Source: Clostridiales bacterium
GTDB lineage: Bacteria; Bacillota; Clostridia; Saccharofermentanales; Saccharofermentanaceae
DNA: 64,000 bases
Direction of reading: 5' to 3'
Assembly (NCBI GenBank): GCA_017513085.1
Contig: JAFWDK010000006.1
Location: 1 to 64,000 of the forward strand
In this document: positions 1-23,502 of the stretch, in pieces
How the letters are laid out: every line of letters starts with the position of its first letter
Position numbering within the stretch: position 1 is the stretch's first letter
Made by a program: the position numbers and the translations under genes
Notes under the pieces: generated by a model
Databases searched by the model: none
Told to the model about the DNA's origin: nothing
What the model saw: only the letters and a program-made list of their open reading frames with translations

Positions 1-3000
1 ATCTGCTACTGCAGTCTCGTTTACTGCATACGTTGTGTTCTCAGGCAGATTCTCGATCGTTACACTCTCGCCTACTGCCAGGTTTGCTGTAACCTTCGTA
101 CCACTAAGGGTTCCGCCTGTTACGGTTACCTTGCTCAGATCTTTACCTGCAGGAACTGTCAGGTCGATCGTGATCTCAAACTTAGCTGTTGCCGCAATCT
201 CATCACTGCCTGCTGCCTTGGTCTTGGTGACCTTCAAGTTACCGGTCTTTGCAAGGTCGTCAACCATCGTGATGAGACCTGAATCCTTATCTACGTTGTT
301 CTTACCCTGTACGGTTGCGTCTGTGATCTTTCCATTCTCAACCGTGAATACGATATCTGTAGATACTTCGTAATCGCTGCCTTCCGGTACCGCTGTTTCT
401 TTCAGCGTGTATGTACCATTCGGCAGGTTCTTGATCTCTGTCGCTTTAGTACCGGACTTGAACTGGATTCCGTTGCCTGTGTATCCGGTCGTTGCAGCTG
501 CGCCTGTGCCGTAGTCAACAGTCACTGCGCCACTTGTTACCAGAGACTTCAGGTCGATGGCTGTTGTTCCGTCTACGCCTGTCAGTGTCAGCGTTGCTCC
601 AGGAAGCTCATTTCCTGCTACATCCAGGGCCTTCTTGCTGATCGTTACGTTGCACTTAGTTTCCTCATATTTGTTATAGACATCAATACAGTCCGGACCG
701 TAGTCAAGATCATCAACTTTCTTTTTTGAATCACAGTATTCGATCTCTTTTGACATCACATAATTGCTGATACCTGTTAGATCCTCATGCGCATCATACG
801 TAGCGCCAACAGGAAGTCTTCTGATATTGATATACTGATCACCCTTAAGATAGCAGGTAACTGTATTAGTATTCCTGTCAACAGTATAAGAAGCTCCATC
901 GCGTTCATAAGGATTGAGGATAAGTACCGAATCCCAATCGATTGTTCCATTTGTGGGTGGAGTAAACTCTACAACGATCTTAAACAACTGATCTCTTGCG
1001 TCCGTACCCTCAACATGCTTAACGACCTTAACGTCGTAAACATGATAAGTATCCTTAAACTCAATAGTTTTAACTTCACCAGGATTCAGAGTAAACGTTT
1101 TGGTCTTAATAGGATCTCGGTTAGTCTCATTACGTCTTGTTACTTGTTCATCACTTCCGTTAATCGTATAAACAACAAATATATTCATTCCGGAAGCGTT
1201 AGTAAGGATCTCCGTAACAGTATATGACTTGGACAGATCAGTAACAGGAATATCTACGGACTTGTAGCTCACATAATAACCATTGCCCGGATCACTGATA
1301 GTGAACTTACTTGTGTCACCGAGATTTCCTCTCCAGATCTCTGTTCCGTCCTGATCATTTACAACAAAAGTCAGATTATTCTTATCTGCAGTTGAAAGAT
1401 TAGACAGCACGCCATAGATCGTCTTTGTAATGTTGATCTTAGCTTTCTCATACTTGTTATTTACAACTGCTTTATGCTCTACGCCGTCTCCGGTAAGAGT
1501 GATAAATGCTGAAGCCTGATCATAATCAGAGGATACCTCTCCGATTTTGGTGTTTCCATCATAATACTCAATGTTAACCAGAGAATAGCCATCGGTCAGT
1601 GCAGAAGCACCTTCAATGACACGGCACTTTGTTCCTACCGGAATTTTAGACAAAGTAACGCTATTCGCCGCACCTGCTTTGATAGAAGTAGAATACGTCG
1701 TGCTTGGTTTTGTAATAGGAGCAGCACCATTCACAGAATAAGCAACCGGCGAGTCAAACTCTACTGTAATCGGATATGTCTTATCCGGATCATATCCGTC
1801 ACCGGTAATATTCTTTACGATCTCAAGGCTACCCTCGTGCTTGTATGTGTAATCATTGGTAATGGTGATCTCACCTGTTTTAGTGGTGTCGTTGATCGCG
1901 ACTTCAGACTTTGTCGGATCGCCCGTAACCTCATATGTAGTTACAAGATCGAAGTGAACGTTTTCGGAAACATTCTCGTTCTTCTCTACCACTTTATAAT
2001 TTCCAGGATTCTTGAGGGCAACCTCAACCGTCTCACCATCTGTAATGGTGAAGCAGTAAGGATCAATACCGTTATTGATCTCTTCTCCGGCAGTATTGAT
2101 GTATTTGTTCGTATTCGTATTCAGTACAGCAAACGCATATACAGTATTTGTATATGGATAGGTACCGGTTACATTTTTCTTAACACTCAACGCGTAACGC
2201 GTATAGACATTTTTAATTGTTCTACTTGCCATCGAATTGGAATTTAACGTAAACGTCTGTCCATTCTCATAATTGACAGCAAAAGAGTATCCGGGAATCT
2301 TCGCAGAATCTTTTTCTTCTAAATGATAAACACCTGTTGGAATCAGCTCAGAAACGAATCTATTCTGATATCCGGCACGTACTTTAATATAATACGGTGT
2401 AGTTTCAAAAGTTACTGTGCCGTTTCGTTCTGTATAGTACTCACCCTTAGAATTGATGATTGCAATTTCATATTCTTTATCCGCGTAGGAAGGATCCAAT
2501 CCTTCTACATTCTTAATAATTTCTACGCGTTGCTTATAAACCTGATCATAGGTATTCGTTATGATATAAACGCCGGTTTCATATTGCTTGACAGGGCTCT
2601 GGGTTTTTACCGTATATTCTTTAAAAACATAACTGTCGCTTCCTGTCTTATCACCACCCGTCTCCGTGATAGTATACTCACCGACAGGAACATTCTCGAA
2701 ACGCTTTACACCATTCGTAAAATCAGCCCAACTAAGCGTAACCGTAGTAAAGTCATCCGGTCCTGTGACCGTAAATGAAAGATTATCCAGACCTCCGATC
2801 TGATTAAGGATATCATTGTTATTCTGGTTATAGAAATATTTCCGAATCTCCAAATTGTTTTTCTGGCGTGTGTATTTATTCTCCAGAGAAACATCTCTAT
2901 TCTCGTTAGGATTAGAAGAGGTCAGTACCTGCGGACCTGTGAATGTCACACTATAGCCTGGAACTTCGGCAGACTGTCCATTCTCTTCAATAACATAGAG

Positions 3001-9693: not shown

Positions 9694-10581
9694 TTACCCG
9701 AAAAGCATATTGAAAAAAGCATATCCGAAATATCCGACTGCGGCACCCGTAGCCAACAGAGTACCCAAATACTTGACGTTTCTTCCATTTCCGATTGCAC
9801 ACCGGGAAATCAGATAAACCACCGCACACACGATAGCCGGGACCACTCCGATGCATCCACAAAGAATGATCGCAAAAAGATCCGACGTTCTCAGCGCCTT
9901 CATCTTATCACTTTTGAAATAGGATTGTGACTTCTTAGACAAGCTATTGATCATTATCGCCAGCACCACAGCCAAAAGTCCGATAGCCGCCGCAATCAAA
10001 ATCTCAATCAGAATATCCGCAAAAAGGCCGGCCGTACTCTTATCCGATGAAGACACAGTCCATCCGAGCTTGTCCGACAAAGCCGGACCCATCGCACGGA
10101 AAAGCACTTGCACCGCAAGATCGATCAGAAGTGCTACCGAAAGATTGTACATGGACGAACCGGTATCTTTCATGATCATCATTTCGACGATCACGATATT
10201 GATCATAATAAACAGTGCACAAAGCACTATAAACGGGAAAAGATTTTTCTTTGGGTCAACAGGATCCAGGAACATGGAAAGATGGGTAACTGCCATCAGA
10301 ATATACATAAGACCTGTCAGACTCTCGATCTTAATGTATCTGGAAGAAATCGGAGTCTTGCAGTATCTGCACTTTCCTCCAAGGAAAAGCCAGCTGAAGA
10401 TCGGTACCAGATCAAGCGCTCCGAGTTCGTGACCACATGTCATGCACATGGAATGACCTTTCACTATGGTCCTGTGTTCCGGTATACGGTATATACAAAC
10501 ATTCGTAAAACTGCCAATAACGGCACCAAACATGCCGGCCATGATTATATTGATAATCGTAAACACCAAATCAACGTTCAT
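9694..10581 (-). CDS. pilD: Prepilin peptidase/N-methyltransferase PilD-like (A24A) with a divergent peptidase half
   Basis: IGSFTNVCIYRIP, CMTC...GKCRYC zinc motifs and multiple TM helices; divergent from pilB. Confidence 0.85.
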   Translation of the reverse strand: MNVDLVFTIINIIMAGMFGAVIGSFTNVCIYRIPEHRTIVKGHSMCMTCGHELGALDLVPIFSWLFLGGKCRYCKTPISSRYIKIESLTGLMYILMAVTHLSMFLDPVDPKKNLFPFIVLCALFIMINIVIVEMMIMKDTGSSMYNLSVALLIDLAVQVLFRAMGPALSDKLGWTVSSSDKSTAGLFADILIEILIAAAIGLLAVVLAIMINSLSKKSQSYFKSDKMKALRTSDLFAIILCGCIGVVPAIVCAVVYLISRCAIGNGRNVKYLGTLLATGAAVGYFGYAFFNMLFG

Positions 10582-10968: not shown

Positions 10969-12645
10969 ATGAAGCGATTAGGTGACATTCTTATCGACAG
11001 TGGCTTTTTGTCACAGGCAGAATTGCAGGAAGCTCTTGAGGCACAGCGATCTTCTCCGTCCAAGAAACGTTTGGGTGAAATCATTGTTGAGAAAGGTCTT
11101 CTGACCGAACTGGATATCCTTAGAGCAATTTCGAGCCAGTATGAAATTCCGATTATCGACTTACAGCAAGTTGACATTGACCAGGAAGCAACCAAGGTCG
11201 TTACTGAGCAGTATTGCGAAGAGAACTTGATTATTCCTGTTGCTTTTGACCAGGACAAACTGGTCGTTGCTATCTATGACCCGTTGAACATTCTTGTAAC
11301 TGATGACCTCCGTTTCCGTACAGGTAACGATATCGTTACGCTCCTTGCTCCGAAGCAGCAGATCCTCACCGCGATCAAGATGAATTATGGTAGAGAAGTT
11401 GCTAAGCAGGCTTCTGATGAACTTGCTGCCGATCTTGATCTCGAGGATATGAAGAATCTGGCTGACGAGATCACAGACGAAGTAAACAACGCTCCTGTAG
11501 TTAAGCTCGTTAACTCCATGATCGACTTCGCTATCCGAGCAAATTCTTCCGATATTCACATCGAACCGATGGAAGATCGTGTTCGAGTCCGTATCCGTAT
11601 CGACGGTGTGCTTTCCGAGATCATGAATAACCCGGTTGCCGCGAAAGACGCGATCATCACACGTATCAAGATCATGTCCGGCATGAACATCGCCGAGAAG
11701 CGTATCCCTCAGGACGGTCGTGTACAGACCATGATCAACGGTAAGCCTGTTGACATGCGTGTATCCGTTCTCCCTACGGTACATGGTGAGAAAACCGTTA
11801 TCCGTATCCTTGCTAAGAACGACGCAAATCTTAATCGTAAGTACTTAGGCATCAGTGAACACAACAACGCGATGATCGACAAGATCGTCAAAGTTCCTCA
11901 GGGTGTTTGCCTTATCTCCGGTCCTACCGGTTCCGGTAAGACAACTACTCTTTACACACTCCTTTCCGAAAAGAATACTCCAGAAACAAATATCGTAACT
12001 GTTGAGGACCCGGTAGAAATTCAGATCCCAGGTCTCAATCAGGTACAGGTTAACGCCAAGGCCGGAATGACATTCGCAAGTGGTCTTCGTTCTATCCTCC
12101 GTCAGGACCCGGATATCATCCTCGTCGGTGAGATCCGTGACGGTGAGACTGCCGAGATCGCAATGCGTGCTGCTATTACCGGTCACTTGGTTTTCAGCAC
12201 GATCCACACCAACGATGCTGTTTCTTCCATCAACCGTTTGATCGATATGGGTATCGAGCCATTCATGGTTTCGACAGCTGTTATCGGCGTTGTTGCTCAG
12301 CGTCTTGTTCGTCGTATCTGCACGAACTGCCGTGAAGAATATGAACCGGGTCCGGATGAAGTCGAGCTTTTGAAACTGCAGCCCGGACAGAAACTCTATC
12401 GTGGCGCCGGTTGCTCCGAGTGTAACGAGAAGGGTTATAAGGGACGTATTGCTATCCATGAAGTTGTAATTATGACCAAAAAGATGAGAGCGCTTCTTGA
12501 GCGCCGTGCTTCAGAAGATGAGATGCGTGCATTGGCAATCTCTGAAGGAACATTGATGTTGGCTGATTCTGCTGCACAGTTAGTACTGGAGGGTATTACA
12601 ACCGTTGCAGAGATGAGTAAAGTAACATATTCCATTGACGGTTAA
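10969..12645 (+). CDS. pilB: Type IV pilus assembly ATPase PilB with N-terminal MshEN domain
   Basis: SDIHIEP, Walker A GPTGSGKTT, LRQDPDIILVGEIRD, CxxC-CxxC. Start 10969 follows GGGAGG. Confidence 0.96.
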   Translation: MKRLGDILIDSGFLSQAELQEALEAQRSSPSKKRLGEIIVEKGLLTELDILRAISSQYEIPIIDLQQVDIDQEATKVVTEQYCEENLIIPVAFDQDKLVVAIYDPLNILVTDDLRFRTGNDIVTLLAPKQQILTAIKMNYGREVAKQASDELAADLDLEDMKNLADEITDEVNNAPVVKLVNSMIDFAIRANSSDIHIEPMEDRVRVRIRIDGVLSEIMNNPVAAKDAIITRIKIMSGMNIAEKRIPQDGRVQTMINGKPVDMRVSVLPTVHGEKTVIRILAKNDANLNRKYLGISEHNNAMIDKIVKVPQGVCLISGPTGSGKTTTLYTLLSEKNTPETNIVTVEDPVEIQIPGLNQVQVNAKAGMTFASGLRSILRQDPDIILVGEIRDGETAEIAMRAAITGHLVFSTIHTNDAVSSINRLIDMGIEPFMVSTAVIGVVAQRLVRRICTNCREEYEPGPDEVELLKLQPGQKLYRGAGCSECNEKGYKGRIAIHEVVIMTKKMRALLERRASEDEMRALAISEGTLMLADSAAQLVLEGITTVAEMSKVTYSIDG

Positions 12646-12657
12646 GGAGGAAAGAAA

Positions 12658-13779
12658 GTGGAAGAATTTACATTAAGTATGGATGCCATTCTCACAGAGG
12701 CTGTTCGTCGCCAGGCGTCCGATACGCACATCACAGTTGGTCTGCCACCTATGATCCGCGTACACGGCGAACTCATGCCCCTCAATTCCAACATTTTGAC
12801 ACAGAGTGACACTGAATATCTCTGCAAATCTATGTTGGACAAGTCCAGACAGCAGTATCTCAATGAGCGTGGTGAGATCGACTTCTCTTACGTTGTTAGA
12901 GATTACAGCCGTTTCCGTTGTAACGTATTTAAGCAGCGCGGTAGTTATACTCTGGCTGCACGTACTATCACAACAGAAATTCCGACATGTGAGCGTCTCG
13001 GACTTCCTGAATTGTTTAAGGATCTGGCTCTGAAACCGCGTGGATTGATTCTTGTAACAGGTCCTACGGGTTCCGGTAAATCAACTACTCTGGCCGCCAT
13101 GGTTGGTCACATCAACCAGAACCGCCGTTGTCACGTTCTCACTCTTGAGGAACCGATCGAGTATCTGCACCGTCATGGTGAGTCGATGATCAACCAGCGT
13201 GAAGTTCACGAAGATACCCTCTCTTTTGCTAATGCTCTTCGTGCTGCTCTCCGTGAAGACCCGGACGTTATCATGGTTGGTGAGATGCGTGACCTCGATA
13301 CGATCAGTACAGCTATCACAGCTTCTGAAACCGGTCACTTGGTTATGTCCACACTCCACACCAGTGGTGCTGCCGACACGATCAACCGTATCATCGACGT
13401 ATTCCCGCCGCATCAGCAGGATCAGATCCGTGTTCAGTTGGGTACAGTTCTTGTTGCGGTTATCTCTCAGACACTTCTTCCCCGTGCGGATGGTGCAGGA
13501 CGAGTAGCTGCATTTGAGATCCTGATCGCAAATGACGCTGTTCGTAACCTTATCCGTGAAGGTAAGACATATCAGATCGATAATACCATTGCGACTAACC
13601 TCAAACTTGGTATGTGTTCTCTTGACTACTATCTTGCCGAGCTTACTAAGAAGGGTCTGATCACACGTGAGACTGCTATCTCCCGTTGTAAGGATCCGGA
13701 TGAATATCGCCGTTACCTCGCTTCCGCCGGCACTGCGAATTCTGTATCTAATGGTCTATTTAACTCGTTGGAGTACTAA
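12658..13779 (+). CDS. pilT: Retraction ATPase PilT
   Basis: GPTGSGKSTT, ALREDPDVIMVGEMRD, HLVMSTLHT and AVRNLIRE. Confidence 0.96.
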   Translation: MEEFTLSMDAILTEAVRRQASDTHITVGLPPMIRVHGELMPLNSNILTQSDTEYLCKSMLDKSRQQYLNERGEIDFSYVVRDYSRFRCNVFKQRGSYTLAARTITTEIPTCERLGLPELFKDLALKPRGLILVTGPTGSGKSTTLAAMVGHINQNRRCHVLTLEEPIEYLHRHGESMINQREVHEDTLSFANALRAALREDPDVIMVGEMRDLDTISTAITASETGHLVMSTLHTSGAADTINRIIDVFPPHQQDQIRVQLGTVLVAVISQTLLPRADGAGRVAAFEILIANDAVRNLIREGKTYQIDNTIATNLKLGMCSLDYYLAELTKKGLITRETAISRCKDPDEYRRYLASAGTANSVSNGLFNSLEY

Positions 13780-13810: not shown

Positions 13811-15019
13811 ATGCCAAATTTCAAATATGAAGTAGTCGACGCAAGTGGACGTTCAAGCAAAGGTGTCATAGAAGCCGCTACCATGGCAGATGCTTCGAAG
13901 ATGCTCCGTGCTGACGGTCGTTTCATTGCCTCTCTTGAACAAGACAATGGCTCAAGTCTTTTGACAATGAACGTCGGAAGTCCAAAGCTGAAGACAAAAG
14001 ATCTCATGATTATCACGAGACAGCTTTCTTCTCTTCTGAGTGCCGGTATTACAGTTATCCGTTCTTTGGATATGTTGTATCAGCAAATGGAAAGTAAGAA
14101 GGCGAAGGCAGTTATCGGTTCCATCTATGAGTCGATCCAATCCGGTAAAACATTGTCGGAAGCCTTCCGTGAACAATCCAAGGCTTTACCTACGATCATG
14201 ATTTCTATGATTTCTGCAGGTGAGGAATCCGGTCGTCTTGACGAAGTAACCGCAAGATTGGCTGCTCACTTTGAGAAAGAGCAAAAGTTGAAGAATAAAG
14301 TTGGTGCCGCCTTGGTATATCCTATTATTCTTGCCGTTGTTACTCTCGGTATTACTGTCGGTTTGATGACCCTCGTAGTTCCGAAATTCGCTGAAACATT
14401 GAACTCCCTCGGTGGTGAGCTCCCTGGCCTCACCAAGGCAGTCATGAATTTCAGTGACAGCTTGGTAGACTTCTGGTACATCTATCTTGCTGTAATTCTT
14501 GGTATCATCGTAGCGTTCCGTATGTGGAAGCATTCAGAGAAAGGTAGCCTTTCCTGGTCCAAGTTCGTGCTTAAGGTTCCGATTTTCGGTAAAGCTCAAA
14601 AAGCAACCGCTGCTGCACGTTTCACCCGTACCATGGCTACATTGCTCCGAAGCGGTATCAGCGTACTGGACTCTATGGAGATCACGAGTCACACTCTTGG
14701 AAACAAATGGCTGGAAACACAGCTCTATGATTCCAGAAATGAAATCCGTAAAGGTTCTTCTGTTTCCCGTTCCATTCGTGGTATCAAGGAATTCCCTCCT
14801 ATGATCTACGCTATGACAGCTATCGGTGAAGAATCTGGTACTTTGGATAGCATCCTTGACAAGGCAGCAGACTTTTTCGAGGATGAGGCAGATGCAGCTA
14901 CTGCAAAGATGACAGCAGCTTTGGAGCCTATCATGATCATCATCATGGCTGGTGTCGTTCTTCTCGTAGTTGGTGCTTGTGGTCTACCAGTACTCACAAT
15001 GTCCAGTAACATTTTGTGA
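13811..15019 (+). CDS. pilC: Type IV pilus platform protein PilC (T2SSF family)
   Basis: AGEESGRLD, ALVYP, AIGEESGTLD, LEPIMI; three TM segments. Confidence 0.95.
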   Translation: MPNFKYEVVDASGRSSKGVIEAATMADASKMLRADGRFIASLEQDNGSSLLTMNVGSPKLKTKDLMIITRQLSSLLSAGITVIRSLDMLYQQMESKKAKAVIGSIYESIQSGKTLSEAFREQSKALPTIMISMISAGEESGRLDEVTARLAAHFEKEQKLKNKVGAALVYPIILAVVTLGITVGLMTLVVPKFAETLNSLGGELPGLTKAVMNFSDSLVDFWYIYLAVILGIIVAFRMWKHSEKGSLSWSKFVLKVPIFGKAQKATAAARFTRTMATLLRSGISVLDSMEITSHTLGNKWLETQLYDSRNEIRKGSSVSRSIRGIKEFPPMIYAMTAIGEESGTLDSILDKAADFFEDEADAATAKMTAALEPIMIIIMAGVVLLVVGACGLPVLTMSSNIL

Positions 15020-15043: not shown

Positions 15044-16162
15044 ATGGCTTTAGGAAGTGGAAGCAGCAAAGAGATTTCGATTGACGTCTCTAGCTCAAAC
15101 ATGAAAATGGTAGTCGGCGGCTACAACCGCAAGACTGGAACGGTTCAGATCGATAAGTTCGGCATCGTCCCGCTCGAGTCTGATACTATCGCTGATGGTG
15201 TCATTTCTGACCAGTTTGGTGTAGTAATGGCGCTGAAAAATGCACTGGCTAAGTCCAATATTCAGGACAAGCGTGCGATCTTGACAGTTGAGGGTAGTTA
15301 TCTTCACACAAGAGACCTGGAACTCCCTGCAGTAAAAGCAGAACAGCTCCGTGATATGGTCCGTTACGAGATCTTGGGTCAGGGCACAAACAACCGCGAT
15401 ATGATCGTTGAATATATCGTATATGACAAAGTACTTGACGAAGAAACCAAGCAGCAGAAGTACAAAGTACGTGCTACAGCAATTCCGAAGGATGTTGCCA
15501 ATGACTTCCGTGAATTGATGAAGACAAGTGCTTTGAACCCGATCGCGCTGGATGTTAATCCGAATGCTATCCGTAAGCTTTTCAAAAGCGGAACGATCAA
15601 CGGAACAACCAACATTGCATCCAACACTTTGTTGCTGATCGAGTTGTCCTCCAAGACAACAAATATCACTGTTTTGGATAAAGGTTTCCCGGTACTGACA
15701 CGTCGTCTGCAGTTTGGTCACTCCAATGTGCGCCAGGTTGCTGAGACTGTTAAGAAGGTTCAGGGCAATTCTGCTAACAAGTCTTCCATCCTGACAAGAC
15801 GTCTTCAGGTCGTTAAAGGTGAAGGTATTTCCAACGTTGATGTTTCTGATATCGATGTATGGCACGAGACAGTTAAGGACGAGCCTTCCTTGAACAGTGC
15901 AGTTTCTGCATACTTCAAGAGCTTGACCGATGCTATTTCCAGAACTGCTCAGTTCTCCATTTCCAAGTATCACTTGGATGCGATCAGCACATGCTTCCTC
16001 TATGGTAGCGGCGCTAAGTATCGCAAGATGGACAAAGAGCTTTCTCGTCAGCTTGGTACTCAGGTTGAAATTCTCGGTTCCCTTAACACAGTTCAGGGAC
16101 CGAAAGACTTTATCTTATCAGACTATGTGAATGCGTGCGGCGCACTCATTCGTGACAATTGA
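15044..16162 (+). CDS. pilM: PilM, actin-like alignment protein
   Basis: ISIDVSSSNMK, LLIELSSKTTNI, FLYGSGA; position in the operon. Confidence 0.88.
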   Translation: MALGSGSSKEISIDVSSSNMKMVVGGYNRKTGTVQIDKFGIVPLESDTIADGVISDQFGVVMALKNALAKSNIQDKRAILTVEGSYLHTRDLELPAVKAEQLRDMVRYEILGQGTNNRDMIVEYIVYDKVLDEETKQQKYKVRATAIPKDVANDFRELMKTSALNPIALDVNPNAIRKLFKSGTINGTTNIASNTLLLIELSSKTTNITVLDKGFPVLTRRLQFGHSNVRQVAETVKKVQGNSANKSSILTRRLQVVKGEGISNVDVSDIDVWHETVKDEPSLNSAVSAYFKSLTDAISRTAQFSISKYHLDAISTCFLYGSGAKYRKMDKELSRQLGTQVEILGSLNTVQGPKDFILSDYVNACGALIRDN

Positions 16163-16176
16163 AAGGAGGCGAGATT

Positions 16177-17091
16177 ATGAGTTTAGCAAAATCAAAGAAT
16201 GACTTTTCTAAAAGAGATATGAACTTCTTCTCTGAATTCAGCTCAGGTGCTTCTCAGAATTTTTCGTCTGCATTACCGGTCTTTCTTCTGTTCGCGCTCG
16301 GTATTATTATTGTGACATTGATCATCTGGATTGCTTGCAGCGTTTCTACGATGAAGAAGACAAACAGAGCAAACGAGTTGAGATCTACGATGAACTCTCC
16401 TGAGTATCTCGAAAAGCTGTCCAGAAAGGATCAGACACAGGCTGAGGTTGAAGAGTTAAGACAGTATAGTTACGTTATTTCCACACTGGAAGTAAAAGTT
16501 TCCGGAACTACTACTGCTGCTGCTGAGACTTTCACATCTGTTGTAGATGCTCTCCCGAACGACACAGTTCTCACCTTCTACGATGATACAAACGGAACTG
16601 TTGAGATCCACGGAACAAGTATTAACTCCGAGTCTCCGCTCAACTTTCTCAAGACTCTCTCAGACAAAGAGTTGTTCAGCTTTATTGAAGATTCCATCAA
16701 GCCTTTCGACCCGATTGCTGGTGGTTATACCGAAAAATCTCTGATTATGGCTGAAATGCGTTATGAATTCGTATTCAAGTGCACTCTCAAAGGTCACTAT
16801 GCTGTTACATGGGCTCGTTTCCTTGATGGTCCGACACTTACACCTTTGACAGAGGTTTCTACAAATTCTTACAACGCAGGTAAGGACTACCTGATTCAGA
16901 GCGTTGCTACATACCAGACAGAGGGTGTCAACTATACTCTTACAAACATCAAGATCAATGGTGCTCCGGTATCCGCAGCTACATTGGCTGAAGCAATTGC
17001 TACAAACGAACTTAAGGGCAAAGTTGCTACAACGATGAATATCGAACTTGTATATACTGCGCCTGCAGAAGGTGAAGGAGGTGCTTCCTGA
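16177..17091 (+). CDS. pilN: PilN-like protein with a C-terminal extension
   Basis: RDMNFF (INLLP-equivalent), one TM, coiled coil, LPNDTVL...VEIHG. Confidence 0.7.
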   Translation: MSLAKSKNDFSKRDMNFFSEFSSGASQNFSSALPVFLLFALGIIIVTLIIWIACSVSTMKKTNRANELRSTMNSPEYLEKLSRKDQTQAEVEELRQYSYVISTLEVKVSGTTTAAAETFTSVVDALPNDTVLTFYDDTNGTVEIHGTSINSESPLNFLKTLSDKELFSFIEDSIKPFDPIAGGYTEKSLIMAEMRYEFVFKCTLKGHYAVTWARFLDGPTLTPLTEVSTNSYNAGKDYLIQSVATYQTEGVNYTLTNIKINGAPVSAATLAEAIATNELKGKVATTMNIELVYTAPAEGEGGAS

Positions 17092-18281
17092 TGAAGACAA
17101 CAGGTGGTAGAGACACATTCTTATTGTTTGTTGTTCTCGTCTTGGTGATCGGTGCAGTTTGCTATATGTTCGTCATCAAGAGATCATTAAATAAGCTCAA
17201 CCAGGCAAAGATCGATTTGGAGATCGTTGAGCAGGAAAAAGCTGAGAAAGATAAGATTATCGCTCAGGCAGAGGAATTGGACAAAGTACGTGAGGAGTTG
17301 AAGGCTTCTATCGCTGCTAAAGAGAAAAAGCTTCCTCCGGAGCTTCTTACTCAGACAATTCAGCGTAAACTGTATAAGCATTTCGAGGAAGCTGGCATTC
17401 CTTACTACGTAGAGATTGCTAACGACGCGAAGAAGTATGAATCCGTTACACTTCCGGATGGAACTTCCAGCCCTGATAGAGTTGCATATTCCAGCTACAC
17501 TATTAGAGTTTCCGGTACAGACGGATGGTTGCTGACACACGATGAAGGCGACAAGATTCCTTTTGAAGTGTTCTATGAGCAGTCCATCTTGGATCAGACA
17601 ATGGGTATTGGCGGTCAGAATGCAAATGGCGGTGCTACAACACCGAACAAGTCCGCTACTGAAGCTGGTATCGCTGACGTAAAAGCACTGAGAAGTGAAA
17701 AGTATGTTGGCTACAAGGAATTCATGGCAGCTATCCAGAAGATCCAGGCTGACGCTCCGGATTATGTAAAGATCACAGGCGTTGGATTTGAGGATCAGGG
17801 TCAGGGCTTCGGTTATTTCACAGCTGTTGTTAATGTATATTCTTATGAACTGGTTAACCGTATCTCTGATGCTAGCGAACAGAAGGGTATGAACTACATG
17901 AAGTGGGTCGGCTCCGAAAATATTGCAACAGGTGGTCTGGTTGGTCTTCCGAACTACTTCACACTCAGTAGCCCGAACTACAGTATTTCCGAGGATTCTC
18001 CTCTGTACAACCACTATGTATCTCTTGTAGATTTCAAGTTCAATGTTGATCGTCCGTTCGCAGCATGGAACATGTGGGGTTATGAATGGCTGACATTGAA
18101 GCCGATTCTCGATGCAGGCGTAGACAAGAATCCGCAGCTGCTCGAACTCGACATTCAGTTGCAGCTTGGTATGATCACTATGGAAGAATACACAAAACTG
18201 AGTTCTTTGATCATTGGTTCCGGCGTTGAGCTTCAGAATGGAGCAACACTCCCTGACGCAAATACTACACCGGCAACATAA
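17091..18281 (+). CDS. PilO-like protein, unusually long
   Basis: RDTFLL + TM + coiled coil + LP motif; overlaps the pilN stop codon (TGATG). Confidence 0.6.
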   Translation: MKTTGGRDTFLLFVVLVLVIGAVCYMFVIKRSLNKLNQAKIDLEIVEQEKAEKDKIIAQAEELDKVREELKASIAAKEKKLPPELLTQTIQRKLYKHFEEAGIPYYVEIANDAKKYESVTLPDGTSSPDRVAYSSYTIRVSGTDGWLLTHDEGDKIPFEVFYEQSILDQTMGIGGQNANGGATTPNKSATEAGIADVKALRSEKYVGYKEFMAAIQKIQADAPDYVKITGVGFEDQGQGFGYFTAVVNVYSYELVNRISDASEQKGMNYMKWVGSENIATGGLVGLPNYFTLSSPNYSISEDSPLYNHYVSLVDFKFNVDRPFAAWNMWGYEWLTLKPILDAGVDKNPQLLELDIQLQLGMITMEEYTKLSSLIIGSGVELQNGATLPDANTTPAT

Positions 18282-18301: not shown

Positions 18302-18336
18302 AAGGGAGCTGTCAAAAATGACAGCTCCCTTTTTTT
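18302..18336 (+). terminator. Terminator of the pilB-O operon
   Basis: AAGGGAGCTGTCA/TGACAGCTCCCTT stem plus T-run. Confidence 0.92.
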
Positions 18337-18745
18337 GTCGTTTCTTCGTTTCGTACAGCAGGAAAGAATCGTGTTTCAAAGTATAACTATTCTTCTCATC
18401 AACACAAATGAATAATCTTCAGTCGCTCCGCCACAGAAAAGATCTCCTTGACCCCGATGGAGCAGGTGATGTGTCCGATATCCGAGATCTCGATTCTTCT
18501 ACTACCTTTCTCATCCGTTGCAGTAGAATAATCCGTTTTAAACCACCATCTCGAACCGATAAGATGCTAATTCTTGTTATAGCGCTATTCTGCAACAGAA
18601 CTGTTCTGGCGAAACACTTGGATCAAACAACTTGATTTTAATATGCATATTATGGAAAAACACCGTATCAAAGAACTTCAATAATTCTTCAAGCATTGTA
18701 TATAATACTTATTTAAACCTATATATAGTGTCCTGAGTGAATTTA

Positions 18746-18800
18746 GACACAATTTGTCACAATTTAAAATCGTAACGTTATACACAATTTCAAATTGTAA
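18746..18800. repeat. 10-bp-period direct repeats (GACACAATTT GTCACAATTT ... TACACAATTT) plus an inverted copy; candidate operator
   Basis: Copies at 18746, 18756 and 18781, and reversed at 18792-18800. Confidence 0.5.
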
Positions 18801-18987
18801 ATAAATATATCCTCGTTTCATCCAATTGACCGGATCGTCTGCAAAGCACTGAAATACAAGCATTTGACGCGGATCCAGGTTTCATGTTATTATATCAAAC
18901 GAGTTCATGATTTATTCAATTATGCCATGAATTGTGACGGCCAAAAAATTTTTTTCACAAAAATGTGAAAAAACTTCAAAATTGGTA

Positions 18988-19015
18988 TTGCATTTTCAGA
19001 ATCACATGCTATAAT
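18988..19015 (+). promoter_or_regulatory. Sigma-A promoter of pilin 1
   Basis: TTGCAT-16-TATAAT with extended TG; strong RBS TAGGAGG downstream. Confidence 0.8.
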
Positions 19016-19055
19016 GTAATTACAAACTCAATAAAACATTTAGGAGGAACTTATT

Positions 19056-19256
19056 ATGAAGAAGATTCAGAAGAACAGAAAAGGTTTTACATTGGTTGAA
19101 ATGGTACTCGTTATCGCGATTATCGTTATCCTAGCTGCAGTAGTATTCTTTACAGTAGCTGATTACCTCAACGCTGCTAAGGGCGCTACATCCAAGCTTT
19201 CTGAGCACAACAGCGCTATCGCTGCTGGTACAGCTGATATCTCTGCTAACCTGTAA
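19056..19256 (+). CDS. Short head-less type IV pilin 1 (56 aa mature), likely the major pilin
   Basis: Class III signal KG|FTLVE; has its own promoter and terminator. Confidence 0.92.
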   Translation: MKKIQKNRKGFTLVEMVLVIAIIVILAAVVFFTVADYLNAAKGATSKLSEHNSAIAAGTADISANL

Positions 19257-19278
19257 TTTCAATCTTGTAGCAATTATC

Positions 19279-19309
19279 GGGGGGGGCTTTAAAAGTCCCC
19301 CCTTTTTTT
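19279..19309 (+). terminator. Terminator after pilin 1
   Basis: G8-CTTT/AAAG-T-C6 stem plus T-run. Confidence 0.9.
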
Positions 19310-19368
19310 ATCTTTGAAGCTATTGGTATTACTTAATTTCCGGATTCAATTTGTTTACAATTTAGTTA

Positions 19369-19396
19369 TTGATTCTCAGTTCAGTGGTGTTATAAT
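19369..19396 (+). promoter_or_regulatory. Sigma-A promoter of the minor-pilin unit
   Basis: TTGATT-16-TATAAT with extended TG. Confidence 0.75.
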
Positions 19397-19422
19397 TATC
19401 TTGGTTATACTTGGAGGCAATT

Positions 19423-19638
19423 ATGAATAAAATTTATAAAAACAGACGCGCTTTTACGCTTGTAGAAATTGTAATTGTTGTTGCAATTATTGTTTTGTTA
19501 GCCGCTGTTACTGGACTGTCCGTTTCTGAGTATATTTCTAATGCTCACGCTGGTTCTGAACAATTAAGTTCCAAGCGGGCCGCTTCCATCGCTAATAACT
19601 CGGCTATCAACGATAGTTTTGTTAATATCGGTTATTAA
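19423..19638 (+). CDS. Short head-less type IV pilin 2 (61 aa mature)
   Basis: MNKIYKNRRA|FTLVE (Ala at -1); GGAGG RBS before the ATG at 19423. Confidence 0.88.
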   Translation: MNKIYKNRRAFTLVEIVIVVAIIVLLAAVTGLSVSEYISNAHAGSEQLSSKRAASIANNSAINDSFVNIGY

Positions 19639-19651
19639 GGAGGAAGTCGAC

Positions 19652-20176
19652 ATGTTTCGAAAGAATAAAGCCTCTAAGCGAGGATTCACCTTGCTTGAGA
19701 CTATGTTATCTGTTGCACTCTTACTGATTGTTTCTCTCGTTGTTTATGAAGGTTTTTTGACTGTTCTCAGCTACGCTGCAGATACTGCTCTTGCTGATCG
19801 AATGAGTAATACAAACCAGCAGACAATGTATGAGAATGTAAGTGATGTAACTAATGGTGCAAAGGTTGCTGCAGTTGATTCAGGCGCTGCTATTTACATT
19901 GATGGTGGCGGAATCAATAATGTATACATGGTTAAGGCGCTGACCGGTGATGCCGGTGCTTCTCACCTGACCGGTACTTCTCTGATGCAGGATCCTCAGT
20001 TCACAGCTACGACAAAGAGACATGGTTTCTATTATGTTTGCCGTGGTTGTCCTACACACAATGAACCTCTTTCCTATTACGAAGTTGACGATGGTCACGG
20101 TGGAAAGAATATCGTTGGTAAGTGCCCTCATAAGGATGCTGGCGTTCAGTGTGGTTATTCCATCGTAATTAGATAA
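19652..20176 (+). CDS. Minor pilin (PilV/GspI-like) with a Cys/His-rich C-terminus
   Basis: KRG|FTLLET; AAGGAGG RBS before 19652; CRGCPTH...CPH...C. Confidence 0.85.
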   Translation: MFRKNKASKRGFTLLETMLSVALLLIVSLVVYEGFLTVLSYAADTALADRMSNTNQQTMYENVSDVTNGAKVAAVDSGAAIYIDGGGINNVYMVKALTGDAGASHLTGTSLMQDPQFTATTKRHGFYYVCRGCPTHNEPLSYYEVDDGHGGKNIVGKCPHKDAGVQCGYSIVIR

Positions 20177-20188
20177 GGAGGTGTAAAT

Positions 20189-20725
20189 ATGGTTAGATTA
20201 AGTAAAAAACAGTCTAATTCCCGTCGAATCGGATTTACACTCCTTGAGATGGTTATCGTTTTGGCGATTATGCTGATGCTCTTCACTTATCTGGTTGCAA
20301 CCTTCCAGGTTATTGAAAAAGGTCATACCGGAACCGCTATGATTAACGATTTGCATGACTACGCATCCATGAATTTGAAGGCTATTGCGAATAATCTTTG
20401 TAATGCTACTTCTGTTGGATCGACCGGTAAAACTATCAGCGTAGCTAGTGGAAATCATGTAGTTGTTGATTCTAACAAACTGCTTCCATCCTATACACAG
20501 TATCCTGGTAATGCAAATGGTGCTCGTTGGGCCTTAGGTTTGTCCTTTACTACTGATTCTGCTCGTAAGATGGTTTATGTAACGATTAAATTATACGATT
20601 CTAAGGAAGGCAACGCTCTTGCTTATACTGATAACATTTCAGTATACTGCCCAGGCTGTAAAGAAATGTCTGATATTACCAATGCCAACTCGATCGTATT
20701 CTCTACGGAACCGGTTATAACATAA
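20189..20725 (+). CDS. Minor pilin (PilW/GspJ-like)
   Basis: RRIG|FTLLEM; AAGGAGG RBS. Confidence 0.85.
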   Translation: MVRLSKKQSNSRRIGFTLLEMVIVLAIMLMLFTYLVATFQVIEKGHTGTAMINDLHDYASMNLKAIANNLCNATSVGSTGKTISVASGNHVVVDSNKLLPSYTQYPGNANGARWALGLSFTTDSARKMVYVTIKLYDSKEGNALAYTDNISVYCPGCKEMSDITNANSIVFSTEPVIT

Positions 20726-20747
20726 CATAATTAGTCGCTAAGTATTG

Positions 20748-20776
20748 AAAGACCGCTCTTTGAGCGGTCTTTTTTT
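20748..20776 (+). terminator. Terminator after the minor pilins
   Basis: AAAGACCGCTC/GAGCGGTCTTT stem plus T-run. Confidence 0.9.
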
Positions 20777-20858
20777 GTTTCATTCTTCTGTTGCATTTCT
20801 TAGATTTCTTCAGAATTCTATTGCCACTGAATTTTCTTTGAAATTTCAGCATTTGCTA

Positions 20859-20887
20859 TTGCTTTTTAAAAATTGTGGGAATATAAT
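20859..20887 (+). promoter_or_regulatory. Sigma-A promoter of pilin 3
   Basis: TTGCTT-17-TATAAT. Confidence 0.7.
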
Positions 20888-20932
20888 TATGTCATAAATG
20901 TGAATGAACTGTGAAAATCCAGGAGGTGTTTT

Positions 20933-21142
20933 ATGATTAAGTTAAACAAGAACAAGTGCGGCTTTACCTTGCTTGAAATGGTAATCGTTATTGCCATTAT
21001 CGCAATTATCTCAATCGTTATCTTCTTTAGTGTAGTTGATTATCTAAATGCCAGTAAGAAAGCTAAAAGCAAGCTGCAAGAGCATAATGATATTATCGAC
21101 AATGCTGCGGTTCAGATCTCCGCATGTACCGGTAAAACTTGA
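20933..21142 (+). CDS. Short head-less type IV pilin 3 (59 aa mature), paralog of pilin 1
   Basis: KCG|FTLLE; AGGAGG RBS; 33/56 identities to pilin 1 by hand alignment. Confidence 0.9.
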   Translation: MIKLNKNKCGFTLLEMVIVIAIIAIISIVIFFSVVDYLNASKKAKSKLQEHNDIIDNAAVQISACTGKT

Positions 21143-21186
21143 TCCCACATTTTACGACACTTCGTTTTTAATATTCACGTTTTATT

Positions 21187-21228
21187 AGACAAGGCGCCAT
21201 GGAGGCTGGTTGCCTTGTCTATTTTTTT
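21187..21228 (+). terminator. Terminator after pilin 3
   Basis: AGACAAGGC...GCCTTGTCT stem plus T-run. Confidence 0.7.
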
Positions 21229-21627: not shown

Positions 21628-23502
21628 TTAGTTGTAATAGAACTGATAATCTTCAGCAGAGTAGCAAGATGTCAACGGTTTCGGACCTGTATCACCATCG
21701 TTCGGACCCGGGCAATATGCCATGTTGAGATTATCGGAACTGCCCTGCAGTACTTTTACAGCCTCGAAACGGCCATAGAAGTTTACGTTGTCCTTGAGTT
21801 CCAATGTACTAGCATCTGCTCCACGTCCACCGAGGCAGATATAAGCATCAACTACGCAAGCACGAGCTGCTGATACAAAGTTCTGACCCATACCAAGAAT
21901 GTAAGCTGCCGGCTTTGTTCCGCTAACTGCCTTAACTGCTGCCTGGTGCTCAGCCTGGTGCCAGTCTTCACTTACGTGCTGTGTAGAAACGATACCGCAT
22001 GTTCTACCCATGTAAACGAAACCACACTGATCGTCCATTACGAAATTGACACCCTTATTCAATACGATCTTAAGTTCATTATCGAACTCATTGGATACCT
22101 GAATATAGAAATCGTGGAAAGTTGTATTACCTGTCATTGTAATTGTGCAATCGCCCTTGGAAAGATCGATCTTCATAACACCGGTGCTATATGTACCGGA
22201 CATACGATAGTTCTTACCACCATCTTTAGTAACAACTGCTCCACCGTAACCACCGGAAGCAAGCTGCTCACCACCGGATACTCGATAAGCTTCCATCTCC
22301 TCAGAAGTCGGGACCTGTCTGCCGGCAGCCTTCATGATCTCACCATTGTTTGCCATGTAGTCTGCACCAGTAAACTTCAGGTTATTATATTCAGCCTCTT
22401 CAACAGAACCGGCTGCAAGAGCACTTCTCTGGATAACTGTATTACCGTTAGCACTAACTGTAGCACCATCGTTAATAATTACGTTACCGCCCCAGTTACG
22501 ATTAATCTTAATATTACTTCCGGAATCAGCTACCATATATGTGCAATAGCCATTACCCATTGTGTAAGCATTAATCGTGATATCTGCATTATAGAAATAT
22601 GCAGAATGTGCTTTCATGTTCAAACCACTCTCATTGGTCGCATTCGATCCATCAGCTTTACGGAGAACATGCTGCACTCCGGAAACACCTTCATACGGAA
22701 CGCCCAAGAAATAGAACGAGTGATTACCACGAATCTCAAGACCATTACCTGTAGACTGGATGTCATAACCAGCGTTCGGGCCATAGAAGATAATGTCGTT
22801 GTAGTACAGAGCACCCTGACCACCCTTTACGATACCTGTGTAAACAACACGGTTCTGGAAAGAGGAAGCGGATTCGTTAGATACATTAGCTGTACCATGG
22901 AATACTGTAAAGGAGCGAGGGTCGTTTACGAAGAGCTTCGGAGAATTATTCATAACGCCATCCTCACCTGTTGTAACCATGTTTGTGCAGATTTCCGGAG
23001 TCGGGGCCGGCGGTGTGTACTTAAGACGAACACGCAGGTTCTCGGAATTTCCGTCAAGAGTGGTTACATCAATGATAGTGTGGAAATCCAAGTAAAGATC
23101 TTCACTACCATCAACTTTAGAAACTTCACAAGTTGTGCTGCTCTGTGTTGATCCTGCAAGACCAGGAGCGATATTCAAACCGCTTGTAGCACCGGCAGAA
23201 GCACTCGGTGAAGTTGTGTTTGCTCCACGGATCGTCAATGTGGAATTGACCGCACCCTGGATCATCTTATCAGTAATTTCCTGATTCTCAATTGCATCGA
23301 TCACGGTTTCAGCTGCACTGATAAGAGTCAATCTTTCCTGGCTCAACTCGGCGTCAACATAGTAACGAGATCTACTTGCAATGGTAATCGTCAATGCGGA
23401 TGAAATAAGAATAAGGGACATACCGAAGATTACGAGAACGAGTAGCAACATACCACCCTTCTTGTTGTTCTGATGTCTCTTACTTGTAGGTAAGAATTTC
23501 AT
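21628..23502 (-). CDS. Large PilX/PilK-like tip pilin with a beta-rich adhesin-like domain
   Basis: NNKKG|GMLLLVLVIF: a class III-like signal with no Glu5, typical of the K/X subclass. Gly/Asn/Ser/Tyr-rich body. Confidence 0.75.
   Translation of the reverse strand: MKFLPTSKRHQNNKKGGMLLLVLVIFGMSLILISSALTITIASRSRYYVDAELSQERLTLISAAETVIDAIENQEITDKMIQGAVNSTLTIRGANTTSPSASAGATSGLNIAPGLAGSTQSSTTCEVSKVDGSEDLYLDFHTIIDVTTLDGNSENLRVRLKYTPPAPTPEICTNMVTTGEDGVMNNSPKLFVNDPRSFTVFHGTANVSNESASSFQNRVVYTGIVKGGQGALYYNDIIFYGPNAGYDIQSTGNGLEIRGNHSFYFLGVPYEGVSGVQHVLRKADGSNATNESGLNMKAHSAYFYNADITINAYTMGNGYCTYMVADSGSNIKINRNWGGNVIINDGATVSANGNTVIQRSALAAGSVEEAEYNNLKFTGADYMANNGEIMKAAGRQVPTSEEMEAYRVSGGEQLASGGYGGAVVTKDGGKNYRMSGTYSTGVMKIDLSKGDCTITMTGNTTFHDFYIQVSNEFDNELKIVLNKGVNFVMDDQCGFVYMGRTCGIVSTQHVSEDWHQAEHQAAVKAVSGTKPAAYILGMGQNFVSAARACVVDAYICLGGRGADASTLELKDNVNFYGRFEAVKVLQGSSDNLNMAYCPGPNDGDTGPKPLTSCYSAEDYQFYYN

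Follow-up and report, generated by a model that had tools for sequence, protein, structure and literature searches.

Helix-only pilins without Pro22 next to a PilB/PilT machine: a candidate type IVa pilus in a family of rumen and gut Clostridia

The first 64,000 nucleotides of contig JAFWDK010000006.1 of a Clostridiales bacterium (GenBank assembly GCA_017513085.1), referred to here as the window and forming the start of contig C1, contain a type IV pilus locus with three very short pilin genes. The genome is 3.06 Mb in size and is rated 99.4% complete; its close relatives are labelled Saccharofermentans sp., Mageeibacillus sp. or Clostridiales bacterium and were sampled from rumen and gut. The locus comprises, in order, a pilD-like gene on the minus strand, a pilB-pilT-pilC-pilM-pilN-pilO series with a terminator, pilin 1 with a terminator, pilin 2 followed by two headed minor pilin genes (hp1 and hp2) and a terminator, pilin 3 with a terminator, and a PilX-like gene on the minus strand. 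The open reading frames (ORFs) of pilins 1, 2 and 3 (19056-19256, 19423-19638 and 20933-21142, all on the plus strand) encode 56, 61 and 59 residues after cleavage at a G/A-F site, and all three score above the Pfam N_methyl cut-off. A first-pass annotation of the window had described three pilins of these lengths beside pilBTCMNO, and the ORFs were confirmed.

The short pilins have a 10-residue class III leader and Met6. Pilins 1, 2 and 3 all have Phe1 and Glu5 and all lack Gly14 and Pro22, and pilins 1 and 3, which are identical at 33 of 56 positions, have Phe21-Phe22; the first-pass annotation was correct on the two missing residues, the identity and the Phe21-Phe22 pair. The AlphaFold model of pilin 1 is one helix (pLDDT 88), and a Foldseek search with this model returned no match. 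Pilin 1 consequently departs from a canonical type IVa (T4a) major pilin in two respects, the globular head (56 residues, one helix) and Pro22. No proline occurs within residues 1-52 in any of 67 distinct short-pilin sequences. Hydrophobic positions across this set (24, 28, 31, 34, 38, 45, 48, 52 and 56) form a narrow stripe, the hydrophobic moment peaks at 103 degrees, which is a coiled-coil-like period, and Tyr27, Ala31, Ala34, His41 and Asn42 are near-invariant.

Truncation or an assembly error was rejected as the source of the short length, identical proteins being found on 17-22 contigs. The homologs are equally short. The best 120 of 741 near-length homologs from a length-limited search were all 62-75 residues long, and the 148 motif-bearing matches from a length-free profile search had mature lengths of at most 70 residues in 125 cases, 71-100 in 11 and more in 12, with Pro22 in 2. 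A search for longer homologs gave three matches, two of them apparently chimeric reads on short contigs and the third an ordinary pilin from another family.

The Pfam N_methyl genes of the genome number seven: four of 56-61 residues, two minor pilins of 163 residues and one modular pilin of 239 residues. Five are in the window, one is on contig C33 and one on contig C24. No canonical headed major pilin was found in this census, which is full for this genome alone. When a headed pilin with Pro22 was used as the query, 2 of 23 genus relatives gave a match, which in each case was the short pilin. No PilA-C-like or other conserved co-oriented neighbour was found for 49 short pilins in 46 loci, apart from pilO-like and pilin genes. 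The earlier proposal of a helix-only subunit in a T4a machine with PilT was upheld by these results: of the three refuting conditions that came with it, two were checked, longer homologs and a headed major pilin elsewhere in the genome, and neither was found.

A head could nevertheless be supplied in trans. Pilin 1 would then correspond to the PilA-N of Geobacter, with a secreted protein from another part of the genome as its head, and the filament would have the ordinary lollipop-shaped subunits. The best PDB sequence matches of the short pilin include geopilin chains, and the conserved stripe, with Tyr27, Ala31, Ala34, His41 and Asn42 in the C-terminal half, could be a binding surface. The Geobacter genes are described as adjacent, however (PMC10710030, PMC5174107), and none of the 49 short pilins has such a neighbour; PilA-N is also described as keeping Pro22 (PMC10710030), compared with 0 of 67 sequences here. 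In a heuristic search for an unlinked partner among 71 small secreted candidates of this genome, pilins were the only highly codon-adapted proteins that are not lipoproteins; every non-pilin above the 95th codon percentile has a lipoprotein-type signal. Nor does the helix of the modular pilin bear a head. We consider a separately encoded head unlikely.

The machine itself has the main hallmarks of a T4a system, as PilB, PilC and PilT are all present. The gene for the extension ATPase, pilB (10969-12645, plus strand, as are the other genes of this series), is the sole pilB of the genome, and its best model is TIGR02538 (594 bits, cut-off 676). An N-terminal MshEN motif, which binds cyclic di-GMP (c-di-GMP), was detected in PilB by NF053729 (57.5 bits, cut-off 38). 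The retraction ATPase gene pilT (12658-13779) scores 476 bits with TIGR01420 (cut-off 319). The gene for the platform protein, pilC (13811-15019), is likewise single in the genome and is assigned by two stretches matching PF00482 and by a PilC tree (discussed below), and pilM (15044-16162) scores 65 bits with PF11104 (cut-off 27). The first-pass annotation of a full pilB-T-C-M-N-O operon holds for the gene order and is less secure for its last two members: the pilN-like gene (16177-17091), at a conserved position, scores 21 bits with PF05137, slightly below the cut-off of 22.8, and the pilO-like gene (17091-18281), which is conserved in 28 of 46 clustered loci, is assigned by position and an N-terminal membrane helix, with no PilO family match. 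A terminator with a 13-pair stem and a T tail ends the operon (18302-18331, plus strand). There is no secretin in the pilus locus. A Com (T4d) pilus, which has a ComGA-GG set without PilT and PilMNO, was rejected, PilT and PilM being present and the ComGC model giving 18.8 bits (cut-off 75). On contig C15 (about 191-1273, minus strand) there is a stand-alone second PilT-family ATPase, 45% identical to the PilT of the locus.

Pilin 1 is preceded by a promoter region at 18954-19015 on the plus strand, consisting of a TTCACA-N4-TGTGAA palindrome (18954-18969), a TTGCAT box (18988-18993), a 16-nt spacer and a TG-N-TATAAT box (19010-19015, the coordinates of the TATAAT), and is followed by a terminator at 19279-19303 (-19.8 kcal/mol, z -3.1). 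At least in the relatives displayed, pilin 1 has TTGCA(T/A) and TATAAT boxes, a GGAGG ribosome-binding site and a terminator. A promoter scan of the window did not exceed chance (17 sites compared with 13.6 +/- 3.4 expected) and missed the boxes of pilins 1 and 3, which are credible because they are conserved in relatives and not because of the scan. The palindrome has three sites in the genome under a relaxed pattern. Half-sites of the TGTGAA/TTCACA type are conserved in relatives at both genes, forming a palindrome ahead of the promoter of pilin 1 and a direct repeat that follows the -10 box of pilin 3. The stretch of about 620 nt that separates the pilO terminator from the pilin 1 promoter (18332-18950) has no convincing ORF; many relatives have just 100-170 nt in all between pilO and the pilin. 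No Rfam match reached the gathering score in the window or in loci L001 and L002 except one tRNA, so that no c-di-GMP riboswitch was detected before pilin 1.

Among 2576 called ORFs, a self-consistent codon adaptation index places pilin 1 at the 98th percentile, compared with the 64th for pilin 2, the 62nd for pilin 3, the 52nd for an orphan paralog and the 60th for the modular paralog; the machine genes lie at the 86-96th. In RNA libraries, pilin 1 contigs (19062-19278/19280) that end at the terminator were found in two of four runs from four studies, and one run (X3) has a contig (19062-20710) that crosses the terminator and spans pilin 1 through hp2. High RNA depth over pilin 1 came largely from short contigs of other organisms that are 90-95% alike and was not used for ranking. 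Pilin 1 alone combines a conserved slot, its own promoter and terminator and 98th-percentile codon adaptation, and is likely to be the major subunit.

Instead of a long surface filament, the helix-only subunits could build only a short pseudopilus that spans the wall and either raises the PilX-like adhesin or draws in DNA. Many homologs are publicly named "type II secretion system protein", although these labels are automatic, pseudopilin models match the N-terminal helix weakly, and stability outside the cell may be lower for a bare helix. On the other hand, PilT scores over its family cut-off and PilM/N/O-like genes are present, whereas type II secretion systems are reported to have arisen via loss of PilT (PMC10191384), and the separate promoter and top-2% codon adaptation of pilin 1 are as expected of an abundant subunit. 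A pseudopilus is in our view clearly improbable.

The genome also has a separate Tad locus on contig C14 (L003, 160664-164527), and the short pilins might be substrates of that machine and not of PilB/PilT. Their size and lack of Pro22 match Flp pilins, a TadA-type ATPase is present in 58 of 60 relatives and in 35/35 family genomes, and just one A24 peptidase is recognisable in the genome. However, a 45-residue Flp-like pilin without Tyr6 is encoded in the Tad locus itself, and the short pilins have Phe1, a 10-residue leader and no Tyr6 and sit after pilO. Moreover, the TadA-type ATPase is present in 15 of the 16 genomes of families f2 and f4, where PilB and the short pilin were both not found, and assigning the short pilins to the Tad machine would leave the PilB machine without its major pilin. 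Such an assignment is extremely unlikely.

The short form is conserved throughout the family. Pilin 1 matches were obtained in 35/35 family genomes, in 7/8 genomes of one sister family and in 0/16 of two others. A profile of the 52-65-residue form matches 104 of 105 genomes of the Saccharofermentans-like family at E 1e-12, the weakest of these matches possibly being the modular paralog. In a 300-genome sample of the class the profile had matches in 70, and those in the 61 genomes outside the family all lay in open frames of at least 108 residues. The pilins of the sister family are 82-134 residues long and headed, with Pro22. In a quickly built PilC tree all 27 loci with short pilins group in one clade (support 100) that is sister (support 85) to three PilCs of this sister family, and the first pilin after pilO has 52-64 residues in 27/27 loci of this clade. 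Loss of the head in the ancestor of the family would be the simplest reading of these sequence comparisons.

Pilin 2 differs from pilins 1 and 3 in its setting. A promoter-like site on the plus strand at 19369-19396 (10/12 match, with TG), whose TATAAT-like box recurs in relatives, precedes a three-gene operon of pilin 2, hp1 (19652-20176, plus strand; 174-residue prepilin, 163 residues mature) and hp2 (20189-20725, plus strand; 178-residue prepilin, 163 residues mature), which ends at a terminator at 20747-20773 (z -6.4). Both headed pilins match N_methyl, hp1 being further assigned by alignment and hp2 by its conserved position. Only 13 nt separate the pilin 2 stop from the hp1 start, with no hairpin between them (z +0.26). 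The first-pass annotation had made each short pilin a monocistronic unit, which remains true of pilins 1 and 3, with their promoter-like boxes, ribosome-binding sites and terminators, and is not true of pilin 2, whose two headed neighbours the annotation had overlooked. Among orthologs of at most 66 residues, the pilin 2 length is 61 residues in 40 of 44, most ending G-F/Y; two longer orthologs of about 82 residues fall outside this set. Pilin 2 precedes headed pilins in the loci of the relatives listed. It is likely to be a minor pilin in the FimU/PilH slot, because it heads an operon with two headed pilins and has a PilX-like protein nearby. At the hp1 C terminus a four-cysteine motif, kept in most aligned orthologs, could bind zinc.

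The PilX/PilK-like protein (21628-23502, minus strand) is a large pilin of 607 residues with a GG-M leader and Val5 instead of Glu5, and is likely to be a tip subunit with an adhesin-like domain. Its Atlas neighbours carry PilX_N and DUF7305, and it was found in 32 of 35 family genomes. Core minor pilins are reported to form a tip complex capped by a subunit without Glu5 (PMC10191384), and the three prepilins in one operon plus the PilX-like Val5 protein constitute such a set. The one-to-one minor-pilin roles would follow from the gene order pilin 2 - hp1 - hp2 - PilX.

Pilin 3 is preceded on the plus strand (20859-20915) by TTGCTT (20859-20864) and TATAAT (20882-20887) boxes and a TGTGAA-N5-TGTGAA direct repeat (20899-20915), and is followed by a terminator at 21186-21221 (-20.5 kcal/mol, z -4.3). 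The same direct-repeat motif precedes orphan paralogs in L032, L035, L040 and L045. Among the genomes examined, pilin 3 is in the locus in only three, this genome (G000), G013 (L035) and G028. It is a paralog of pilin 1 that is lineage-limited in this position. A fourth short pilin, the 56-residue orphan paralog on contig C33 (L001, 7338-7538, minus strand), has its own terminator and is identical to pilin 1 at 36 of 56 positions. GAST content was tried as a marker of the major pilin (39% in pilin 1 compared with 27-29% in pilins 3 and 4) and discarded, there being no separation family-wide (33.0 compared with 31.2).

The first-pass annotation had further proposed that the three short pilins are switchable alternative major subunits. 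Pilin 2 falls out of this scheme as the leader of the minor-pilin operon, leaving the version in which pilin 1, pilin 3 and the orphan are interchangeable and are switched by their separate promoters. Identity to pilin 1 is 55-64% for pilin 3 and the orphan, which have their own terminators and a different upstream motif, most family genomes hold 2-5 short-pilin profile matches, separate pilin 3 RNA contigs occur in two studies, and S. sanguinis pili are reported to mix two major pilins (PMC10628169). Codon usage is ordinary in pilin 3 and the orphan, however, and orphans lie in unrelated neighbourhoods. Pilin 3 also diverges faster than pilin 1, with 17 compared with 3 non-synonymous codon differences from the closest ortholog and 39/56 compared with 53/56 identity to the closest relative. 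We therefore regard switching as very unlikely.

The modular paralog of 239 residues is encoded on contig C24 (L002, 7789-8538, minus strand). Its model has a helix at residues 3-57, a disordered Pro/Thr/Gly-rich linker at 58-142 and a separate 97-residue domain at 143-239 (pLDDT >85), so that the pilin module of this protein, too, is a bare helix. Another 15 pilins of 226-318 residues from relatives share the modular plan. The C-terminal domain is beta-rich with conserved aromatic residues and matches 12 of 120 family genomes, and searches of Pfam and of PDB sequences assigned it to no family. The modular paralog gave no Foldseek match at E 0.001, and VIA-align, which barely probed the C-terminal domain, gave only generic coiled coils.

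The pilD-like gene (9694-10581, minus strand) matches the methylase domain PF06750 (E 3.7e-32), with the four-cysteine domain intact, and has no match to the A24 peptidase family PF01478. Genome-wide, PF01478 is matched by only one gene, on contig C4 (L144, 1255-2175, minus strand), which is without a methylase domain. A stand-alone peptidase of this kind is present once in most genus genomes, and just 2 of 15 aligned PilD-like proteins match the peptidase family; the PF01478 matches among those of the relatives fall at two second-locus genes and none at short-pilin loci. This recurrent pattern suggests that prepilin cleavage and methylation could be divided between two genes.

Taken together, these results favour the interpretation that the locus encodes a helix-only, Pro22-less T4a pilus that arose by loss of the head and is convergent with Tad pili, to which we assign a probability of roughly 0.6. 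The gene set, the lengths, the loss of Pro22, the family-wide conservation and the lack of an adjacent partner are established; the assembly steps that follow are all proposed from the genes. Cleavage of the prepilins before Phe1 would probably fall to the stand-alone A24 peptidase, and methylation to the PilD-like protein of the locus. A tip complex of the PilX-like protein, hp2 and hp1 would initiate assembly, the order pilin 2 - hp1 - hp2 (- PilX) matching the core minor-pilin order, and pilin 2, a head-less helix of fixed length, would likely bridge the headed tip to the bare shaft. Pilin 1 would form the shaft, its hydrophobic stripe packing on neighbouring helices instead of on a beta-sheet and its helix unbroken as in Tad pili. 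PilB would extend the filament, under likely c-di-GMP control via the MshEN motif, and PilT would retract the thin filament. Pilin 3, the 56-residue orphan and the 239-residue modular paralog are likely to be occasional subunits, the modular one displaying its small domain on a long linker. Whether the whole of this abundant gut family builds a PilT-retracted T4a pilus of this kind from bare helices of 52-65 residues (shaft, adaptor and adhesin-bearing modular subunit), with Pro22 lost along with the head and cleavage and methylation split over two genes, we judge to be evenly balanced. Likely roles are adhesion to plant fibre or cells and, because ComEC is present in the genome, DNA uptake. 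The extracellular proteome of Ruminococcus flavefaciens is reported to contain type IV pili (PMC3672088).

Several points weigh against the helix-only pilus. Filament formation is a prediction from sequence and modelled structure. AlphaFold is reported to be unable to predict helix melting (PMC10628169), and the unbroken helix accordingly depends on the missing Pro22; the hydrophobic stripe is equally what a head or a PilA-C would cover. The screen that makes an unlinked head partner unlikely was heuristic and covered one genome. Codon indices of 200-nt genes are noisy, and the RNA data are assembled contigs, which show presence only and cannot rank genes, uncovered intergenic stretches being uninformative. 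The PilC tree is unrooted with long branches. Most loci were located through the short pilin itself; hence a PilB-anchored check was added, in which 22 of 23 genus relatives had exactly one PilB; in 19 of them the same contig carries the short pilin no more than about 9 kb away, and in 3 the locus is split over contigs. A second locus, which encodes a PilB of its own (41-43% identical) along with ordinary headed pilins 150-216 residues long, is present in genus g2 and in genome G026, and thus the family has not lost headed pilins everywhere. Finally, G010 and G026 keep the short pilin, and the cognate PilB and PilX were not found there.

The second pilus loci of genus g2 and G026 (L120, L121, L122 and L127) hold giant pilin-like proteins as well as headed pilins: one of 2931 residues in L121, and open frames of 2780 residues in G031 and 6126 in G026. 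In G026 a 58-residue short pilin (L126, 10214-10420) adjoins a yebC-like gene at the place where relatives have the whole pil operon, an arrangement that looks as if the machine had been deleted and the pilin kept. Genus g2 also encodes a distinct 50-residue pilin-like peptide (L125, 5823-6005, minus strand) that is unlike the pilin 1 family beyond residue 20.

A literature search found no paper on the short pilins of this family, most subscription papers being outside its reach. The pilus resembles the monoderm T4a pili of Streptococcus sanguinis (PilE1/E2, PilA/B/C; PDB 8PFB) and the clostridial T4a pili, which likewise combine PilT, large modular minor pilins and several pilin paralogs with a locus that has no secretin. 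The short-pilin profile aligns to residues 1-53 of S. sanguinis PilE1, but PilE1 is described as carrying a globular head, with a segment around Pro22 that is melted (PMC10628169), whereas here the shaft subunit stops at the end of the helix. The T4a filament of Acinetobacter genomospecies 16 (PDB 8TOB) likewise contains a short N-terminal chain of a pilin; that 70-residue chain is reported, however, to be a full-length lollipop pilin cut mid-chain after translation (PMC10980823) and not the product of a head-less gene. The thin pili of Saccharibacteria are reported to use lollipop pilins (PMC11623550).

Geobacter sulfurreducens PilA-N/PilA-C (PDB 6VK9/2M7G), among the top PDB sequence matches, shares the T4a-type leader, Phe1, Glu5, a length of about 60 residues and a PilT machine. 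PilA-N is described as keeping Pro22 and pairing with a 104-residue PilA-C encoded immediately downstream (PMC10710030, PMC5174107), neither of which applies to pilin 1; the host here is monoderm and the aromatic content 7%. A conductive e-pilin was rejected, as the reported criteria are at least 9.8% aromatic residues with position 24 included (bioRxiv 10.1101/668343), and pilin 1 has 7.1% F/W/Y (8.9% with His), with an aromatic residue at position 24 in 0/67 sequences.

A helix-only main subunit has so far been described only for the unrelated Tad pili, whose pilins are called unique among type IV pilins in having no C-terminal domain and whose head-less helix forms a 50-angstrom filament (PMC10710030). 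A head-less, Pro22-less major pilin on PilB/PilT would, if confirmed, show that helix-only subunits are not tied to the Tad machine, give an independent origin of a Tad-like all-helical filament on a T4a motor, and represent a minimal substrate for that motor. Melting around Pro22 has been proposed to let the helix stretch to fit heads (PMC10710030); this proposal would become testable by comparing rise, twist and stretch within a T4a setting, and the pilus would be a natural test of whether melting exists only for heads. It would also be a main surface appendage, predicted to be unusually thin, of common and little-studied rumen and gut bacteria. Caulobacter crescentus PilA (Tad/Flp, T4c; PDB 8U1K) is similar in architecture, being described as a helix-only pilin of the 40-60-residue class with no Pro22, a polar outer face and no second head protein found (PMC10710030). 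By the published Flp pilin definitions (PMC3244431), the short pilins differ in having Phe1, a short leader and no Tyr6/Flp motif, and they score 18.7 bits with Flp1_like (cut-off 33.5). Unlike Tad pilins, they are encoded with PilB, PilT, PilC and PilM/N/O-like genes instead of TadA/B/C and with headed core minor pilins, in a genome that has its Tad locus elsewhere.

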